Shown one piece after another: positions 3,742 to 5,181 of a DNA stretch of 64,000 nucleotides. The position numbers and the translations under genes were made by a program. The notes beneath the pieces are model-generated. The model was not told the origin of the DNA. It worked only from the letters and a program-made list of their open reading frames with translations, and searched no databases. This stretch comes from Escherichia coli (GTDB taxonomy: Bacteria; Pseudomonadota; Gammaproteobacteria; Enterobacterales; Enterobacteriaceae). The stretch lies in NCBI RefSeq assembly GCF_050320075.1, contig NZ_CP190018.1; one strand, written 5' to 3'. How positions within the stretch are numbered: the stretch's first letter is position 1; the number at the start of each line of letters is the position of its first letter.

Positions 3742-5181
3742 ATGTCAGGATTTAAAAAAGGTTTTTTATGGGGCGGCGCGGTAGCCGCGCATCAGTTGGA
3801 AGGTGGCTGGAATGAAGGAGGAAAAGGCATCAGTATCGCTGATGTGATGACTGCTGGCGCTCACGGTGTGCCGCGTGAAGTGACAGAAGGCGTTATCGAC
3901 GGACTTAATTATCCCAATCATGAAGCAATTGATTTTTATCATCGCTATAAAACAGATATTCAGTTATTTGCCGAGATGGGATTCAAATGCTTTCGAACTT
4001 CCATTGCCTGGACACGAATCTTTCCGCAAGGTGACGAACAGGAGCCGAATGAAGAGGGTTTAAAATTTTAAGATGATCTGTTCGATGAATGCCTGAAGCA
4101 GGGAATGGAACCTGTGGTGACGCTTTCGCATTTTGAGATGCCTTACCATCTGGTGACAAAATATGGTGGCTGGCGAAACCGTAAACTGATCGACTTTTTT
4201 ATCCGCTTCGCATCAACGGTCTTCACGCGCTATAAAGAAAAAGTAAAGTACTGGATGACGTTTAACGAAATCAATAATCAGGTGAATTTCAGCGAAAGCC
4301 TGTGTCCATTTACTAATTCCGGTATCTTGTATTCGCCAGAGGAAGATATCAATGAGCGCGAACAAATAATGTACCAGGCGGTACATTACGAGTTAGTTGC
4401 CAGTGCCCTGGCGGTACAGACTGGAAAATCGATCAATCCTGAATTTAATATCGGCTGTATGATCGCCATGTGCCCCATCTATCCTCTGACGTGTGCACCC
4501 AACGATATGATGATGGCCACGAAAGCGATGCATCGTCGTTACTGGTTTACTGATGTTCATGCGCGTGGATATTATCCGCAACATATGCTGAATTACTTTG
4601 CCAGGAAAGGATTCAACCTCGATATCACACCAGAAGATAATGCGATTCTTGCCAGAGGTTGTGTCGACTTTATCGGCTTTAGCTACTACATGTCTTTTAC
4701 GACACAATTTTCGCCAGATAACCCGCAACTGGATTATGTTGAGCCACGAGATTTGGTCAGCAACCCTTATATCGATACATCCGAATGGGGATGGCAAATT
4801 GATCCGGCAGGGCTACGTTATTCACTCAACTGGTTCTGGGATCATTTCCAGTTGCCGCTGTTTATTGTCGAAAATGGATTTGGTGCGGTTGACCAGAGAC
4901 AAGCTGACGGCACGGTGAACGATCACTATCGCATTGATTACTTTGCTTCCCATATTCGGGAAATGAAAAAAGCCGTTGTTGAAGATGGTGTTGACTTAAT
5001 TGGCTACACACCGTGGGGCTGCATTGACCTGGTTTCTGCCGGAACAGGGGAAATGAAAAAGCGCTACGGAATGATTTACGTCGATAAAGACAACGAAGGG
5101 AAGGGAACGCTGGAACGGATACGTAAAGCGTCGTTTTACTGGTATCGGGATCTCATCGCCAACAATGGCGAAAATATTTGA
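3742..5181 (+). pseudogene. Family-1 glycoside hydrolase (6-phospho-beta-glucosidase, BglA/AscB-like) interrupted by in-frame TAA at 4069-4071
   Basis: Two same-frame ORFs (3736..4071 and 4105..5181) together give a full-length GH1 protein; conserved FLWGGA.AA.Q.EG N-terminus and ENG motif (FIVENGFG); stop falls where homologues have Tyr (…GLKF*DDLFDEC…). Confidence 0.8.

Follow-up and report, generated by a model that had tools for sequence, protein, structure and literature searches.

A premature TAA codon in the bgcA-type 6-phospho-beta-glucosidase gene of an Escherichia coli beta-glucoside operon: very probably a recent loss of function in one lineage

The window analysed here is a stretch of 64,000 nucleotides from Escherichia coli (assembly GCF_050320075.1, contig NZ_CP190018.1). 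It is identical at 64,000 of 64,000 positions to the corresponding part of the complete genome of strain YZLc1-3 (NZ_CP123240.1, 2575051-2639050), and the PGAP gene table of that genome was used for reading the neighbourhood. The gene order in YZLc1-3 is ydeE, eamA, a divergent GntR-family regulator, PTS IIB, IIC and IIA, a carbohydrate porin, a 6-phospho-beta-glucosidase, and the convergent marB, marA and marR. The window begins inside the EIIB gene; upstream of the window start are the first 100 bases of EIIB, the promoter of the operon and the bgcR-type divergent GntR regulator. The following features are found on the plus strand.

1..212, plus strand: 3' part of the PTS EIIB gene (its last 212 bases), cut by the window start; PGAP table of the identical genome.
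327..1649, plus strand: PTS EIIC, 440 amino acids, intact; Pfam PTS_EIIC, E = 6e-46, and PGAP.
1677..1988, plus strand: PTS EIIA of the lactose/cellobiose family, intact; Pfam PTS_IIA, E = 1.2e-31, and PGAP.
2044..3717, plus strand: bgcH-type carbohydrate porin, 557 amino acids, intact; Pfam LamB, E = 8.9e-82, and Sugarporin_N, with no PGAP pseudogene flag.
3730..3735, plus strand: Shine-Dalgarno sequence AAGGAG for the ATG at 3742, read from the sequence.
3742..5181, plus strand: bgcA-type GH1 6-phospho-beta-glucosidase pseudogene; translation, Pfam PF00232 after repair of the stop, and PGAP in YZLc1-3 and Ec-U3.
3742..4068, plus strand: N-terminal fragment of 109 residues expected from translation, with the AAHQLEG motif (Gln18) conserved.
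4069..4071, plus strand: TAA in place of codon 110, a premature stop caused by the base at 4071; comparison with strains ETEC4079, 03_3013, 746 and 7/2 and with PDB homologues.
4105..5181, plus strand: downstream in-frame open reading frame of 358 amino acids from Met122, with both catalytic glutamate motifs; open reading frame list and motif positions.

EIIB, EIIC, EIIA, the porin and the GntR regulator all stand without a pseudogene flag in the PGAP annotation of YZLc1-3 and of a second complete genome, Ec-U3. The initial annotation had taken the EIIB, EIIC, EIIA and porin genes upstream of the glucosidase to be intact, and for all four this agrees with both genomes; of EIIB the window itself holds the last 212 bases only.

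Downstream of the glucosidase gene, the gap between its stop codon and the convergent marB measures 56 bases and contains a perfect inverted repeat, CAGGCTCTG TGAT CAGAGCCTG, at 5206-5230. This repeat is probably a shared bidirectional terminator hairpin, though it has no T-run and was not called by a consensus scan. Scanning of 3600-5500 for promoters and terminators gave no signal above that expected from shuffled sequence, and neither an internal promoter nor an internal terminator bearing on the lesion was seen there.

Several other irregularities were noted elsewhere in the window. An ECSE_1600-family autotransporter gene of 1,806 amino acids lies at 27841-33261, between lsrK and hipB. 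It is followed by hipBA (33445-35033), a SIR2-family NAD-dependent deacylase (35233-36585) and, at 36800-37808, what is left of an ISNCY transposase gene with a frameshift; the segment 33445-37808 may have been inserted as a small island that includes a defence-like gene. At 41367-41901 a 139-residue open reading frame annotated as 'amidohydrolase family protein' overlaps a hypothetical one of 51 residues, and a truncated carboxymuconolactone decarboxylase family gene is found at 44646-44882; both look like more gene remnants, in an oxidoreductase-rich accessory segment. In the fimbrial operon (45805-48462) PGAP places, in the identical genome, an IS1 element at 47499-48196. The usher gene (45805-47484) has lost its C-terminus, and a fimbrial subunit remnant (48253-48462) is followed by ydeQ.

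Translation of 3742-5181 gives a single GH1 frame of 480 codons that ends in TGA and is broken at exactly one place, by the TAA at 4069-4071 (codon 110). The initial annotation had joined two open reading frames, 3736..4071 and 4105..5181, into one gene. They are in the same frame in the program-made list, and that part of the proposal stands; the start does not, as the gene begins at the ATG at 3742, six bases downstream of the AAGGAG sequence at 3730-3735 and at the same position in PGAP. The TTG at 3736 was rejected as a start, being merely the mechanical start of the listed frame, i.e. the first start-like codon past the preceding stop.

With codon 110 read as tyrosine, the resulting protein of 479 residues was compared with Pfam and with solved structures. 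PF00232 (Glyco_hydro_1) covers residues 4-476 (profile positions 5-452/453, E = 5.8e-130), and five solved 6-phospho-beta-glucosidases (PDB 3pn8, 4f79, 8ysv and 3qom, and E. coli BglA, 2xhy) align over the full length, with E between 2e-204 for BglA and 4e-241 for 3pn8. In GH1 enzymes the acid/base glutamate lies in an NE(I/P) motif and the nucleophile in an ENG motif. Both are present and both are encoded downstream of the TAA: Glu176 in TFNEIN at 4267-4269 and Glu377 in IVENGFG at 4870-4872. The C-terminal segment conserved in the homologues is also encoded past the stop. A full-length domain match and both catalytic glutamates are thus retained in the repaired reading, whereas the uninterrupted frame and complete barrel of a working GH1 gene are lost at codon 110, where PGAP records an 'internal stop'. 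The window copy differs from BglA and the other solved enzymes in being untranslatable beyond residue 109. The reading of one in-frame TAA in an otherwise full-length GH1 gene was confirmed in this way by the translation, by Pfam and by the alignments to solved homologues.

The codon that preceded the TAA was sought in close relatives and in the homologues. The alleles of ETEC4079 and 03_3013 have TAT at this position, and the gene of strain 7/2 differs from the window gene by one base only, position 4071. Strain 746 shows three differences from the window in 25,000 positions, one of which is 4071, with T in 746 and A in the window. In the printed alignments tyrosine is aligned to the stop in all five solved homologues, within the motif GL(K/Q/R)FYDD. 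Because the nearest intact alleles read TAT and the homologues have tyrosine, the comparison identifies the lesion as a single T-to-A transversion at 4071, TAT to TAA, i.e. Y110*. The initial annotation had proposed an ancestral tyrosine, from AscB/BglA-type homologues, and a TAT or TAC to TAA substitution; both proposals are borne out, the intact codon being TAT.

The two remaining differences between 746 and the window are missense changes, one at 13127 in yneG (codon 3, proline in the window, serine in 746) and one at 20427 in lsrB (codon 153, threonine in the window, alanine in 746). All three differences in the 25 kb are therefore protein-changing, which fits a very recent divergence; selection would also fit.

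The gene is otherwise without differences from the intact 7/2 allele, and the event is therefore taken as recent. This is the picture of a recent pseudogene, with a disabling lesion that is missing from close relatives and no further change in the gene.

The same stop was found in other genomes and assemblies. PGAP flags the glucosidase gene of YZLc1-3 as a pseudogene ("internal stop"), and in Ec-U3, which agrees with the window at 100% over 25 kb, the gene again carries the 'internal stop' flag. YZLc1-3 was isolated from chicken faeces in China and Ec-U3 from human urine in Burkina Faso; a literature search on the two strain names found nothing. A probe of 61 bases centred on the TAA was matched exactly by these two genomes only in a set of 5,426 complete E. 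coli genomes, and 398 genomes matched it with one mismatch, on the same background. When the TAA 61-mer was rebuilt on the background of the other main allele, no exact match was obtained among 2,263 genomes. The TAA allele is accordingly rare: of the roughly 2,535 complete genomes in which the gene is present, two have it. Public assemblies contain 183 contigs on which the exact 109-residue peptide is called and 180 with the exact 358-residue product; in one example, the Logan assembly of ERR1971734, the two open reading frames stand side by side in 6.3 kb without a difference from the window.

Because independent assemblies carry the same stop, the TAA is a real inherited allele of a repeatedly sampled clone and no artefact. 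The initial annotation had allowed for a sense codon at 4069-4071 turning up on resequencing; none was found, the stop being present in Ec-U3, YZLc1-3, ERR1971734 and about 180 contigs. It had also considered a protein that naturally ends at the stop, and this is contradicted by homologues that continue past the position. The ideas that the gene is split by nature, or that a second gene lies downstream, were rejected likewise: the close relatives all encode one protein of 479 residues, and the possible restart ATG has no spaced ribosome binding site.

MS14384 and CE2050 are among the nearest relatives in which the gene is intact, and published typing places both in ST963, clonal complex CC38 and phylogroup D. 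By near-identity to these two typed genomes, we infer that the lineage is related to ST963/CC38 of phylogroup D.

Shortened versions of the glucosidase also occur in assemblies of E. coli and of Shigella sonnei, S. boydii and S. flexneri, e.g. forms of 383 and 342 amino acids on long contigs and a form of 103 amino acids on 16 contigs. This suggests independent losses of bgcA function in other lineages; many of the shortened versions are contig-end fragments.

The gene cluster was further compared with known beta-glucoside systems. The bgc locus presumably adjoins marB. The bgc operon is said to let cells use cellobiose, arbutin and salicin when the temperature is low, and to depend on BgcR and CRP for this, and Neelakanta, Sankar and Schnetz reportedly described in 2009 a single promoter base change that leads to BgcR-independent expression, as well as a prevalence of bgc in phylogroup B2. 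As published, the operon is reportedly limited by promoter strength and by BgcR. In the summary of Neelakanta, Sankar and Schnetz (2009) given in PMC3585215, the operon has five genes, including those for BgcE, BgcF, BgcI and BgcA. The content and order of our cluster as read from PGAP and Pfam (EIIB, EIIC, EIIA, porin, phospho-beta-glucosidase and divergent GntR-type regulator) match that summary. On gene content and order the cluster matches the bgc operon (bgcEFIHA with divergent bgcR), as that operon is described in the citing paper's summary. Within the limits of that description the two share the same five-gene make-up and the divergent regulator, and the operon is accessory, the gene being carried by 2,535 of the 5,426 complete genomes when a gene covered over at least 80% of its length is counted as carried. 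They differ in that the published operon is intact, whereas in the window bgcA has the premature stop and the hydrolase is missing.

The initial annotation had likened the cluster to the classic cryptic beta-glucoside systems. This is right in so far as the cluster matches bgc, which is listed together with chb, asc and bgl among the cryptic beta-glucoside operons of E. coli, operons that regulator or promoter mutations switch on when selection is prolonged (PMC4488073). The K-12 operons bglGFB, ascFB and chb/cel also handle arbutin, salicin or cellobiose through PTS uptake and a phospho-beta-glucosidase, and the window operon resembles them in being normally non-functional and in principle recoverable by mutation under selection (PMC4488073). 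The likeness ends at the cause of silence. In the K-12 operons the structural genes are all intact, silence is regulatory (H-NS, AscG, ChbR) and activation comes through insertion sequences or through regulator or promoter mutations, whereas in the window a structural gene, that of the enzyme, is itself broken by a nonsense codon.

We regard Y110* as very probably a recent, lineage-specific loss-of-function nonsense allele of bgcA, the last gene of the accessory bgc operon. The T-to-A change at 4071 turned TAT into TAA and should end translation of bgcA after 109 residues, and the fragment so made contains neither catalytic glutamate. In a product restarted at Met122 (4105) the GH1 domain would be without its first quarter. 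The GH1 fold is a (beta/alpha)8 barrel, and because of this architecture we infer that neither piece would be active. Restart at Met122 is in any case unlikely, because the only purine-rich stretch, the sole Shine-Dalgarno-like sequence GGGA, directly abuts the ATG at 4105. Because bgcA is last in the operon and marB is convergent, the stop would have no polar effect on other genes, and the uptake genes would still be expressible. In this reading the mutation has a single origin, in a phylogroup D sub-lineage related to ST963/CC38, and is now present in a clone sampled worldwide. As to the cause, neutral decay is most likely: a rarely expressed accessory gene would have decayed and been carried along by a successful clone.

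Loss of BgcA could instead have been adaptive, with the hydrolase turned off while transporter and porin are kept, e.g. for avoiding toxic aglycones from plant aryl-beta-glucosides or sugar-phosphate problems, or with another phospho-beta-glucosidase taking over. We give this reading a small chance. About 180 sequenced isolates from various hosts and continents carry the allele, but hitch-hiking in a successful clone accounts equally for that spread. All other genes of the operon stay intact; the allele, however, shows no further differences from that of 7/2 and is too recent for a signature of selection. The further truncated forms in E. coli and Shigella assemblies hint at recurrent loss, although those in Shigella are consistent with the general gene decay of that group. 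The operon is moreover reported as silent under laboratory conditions (PMC4488073), which favours drift. A more specific form, in which Y110* would be a selected change marking an expanding CC38-related clone, and the bgc PTS and porin would be kept for sensing or uptake only or there would be no release of toxic aglycones, is in our judgement improbable as well. Within the loss-of-function reading, drift is favoured over selection.

It is less probable still that a functional product persists, by readthrough or suppression of the TAA or as a split enzyme made from the two fragments. The downstream frame is perfectly kept and has an in-frame ATG 33 bases past the stop, but a very recent point mutation would be expected to leave the frame untouched. 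Termination at TAA is efficient in E. coli, the ATG at 4105 is without a properly spaced Shine-Dalgarno sequence, and near relatives encode a single uninterrupted protein, which argues that a split is no evolved state. A sequencing or assembly error in a gene that is really intact is the weakest explanation and can practically be dismissed: the difference is a single base inside an A/T-rich run, AAAATTTTAAGAT, seen in only two of 5,426 complete genomes, but the same base recurs in two complete genomes that differ in laboratory, host and continent, and in the Logan assembly of ERR1971734, both products are called on about 180 contigs each, and the change is a substitution, unlike a homopolymer-length error.

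The nonsense allele Y110* has no bearing on the open questions of beta-glucoside crypticity, and the pseudogene status of bgcA is already known, NCBI labelling the gene of the identical genome as a pseudogene. The gene, part of an accessory sugar operon, cleanly illustrates a pseudogene at the stage where the disabling mutation is its sole change, and one ST963/CC38-related clone could be recognised by Y110* as a lineage marker SNP. The low-temperature beta-glucoside phenotype of bgc is predicted to fail in the TAA lineage, and the clone is predicted to be unable to reach Bgl+ through bgc by promoter mutation alone. Of the nine codons that lie one base away from TAA, seven are sense codons (tyrosine twice, lysine, glutamine, glutamate, serine and leucine), and reversion is therefore feasible; growth on beta-glucosides by the bgc route would need a revertant at codon 110, probably together with a promoter-up mutation.
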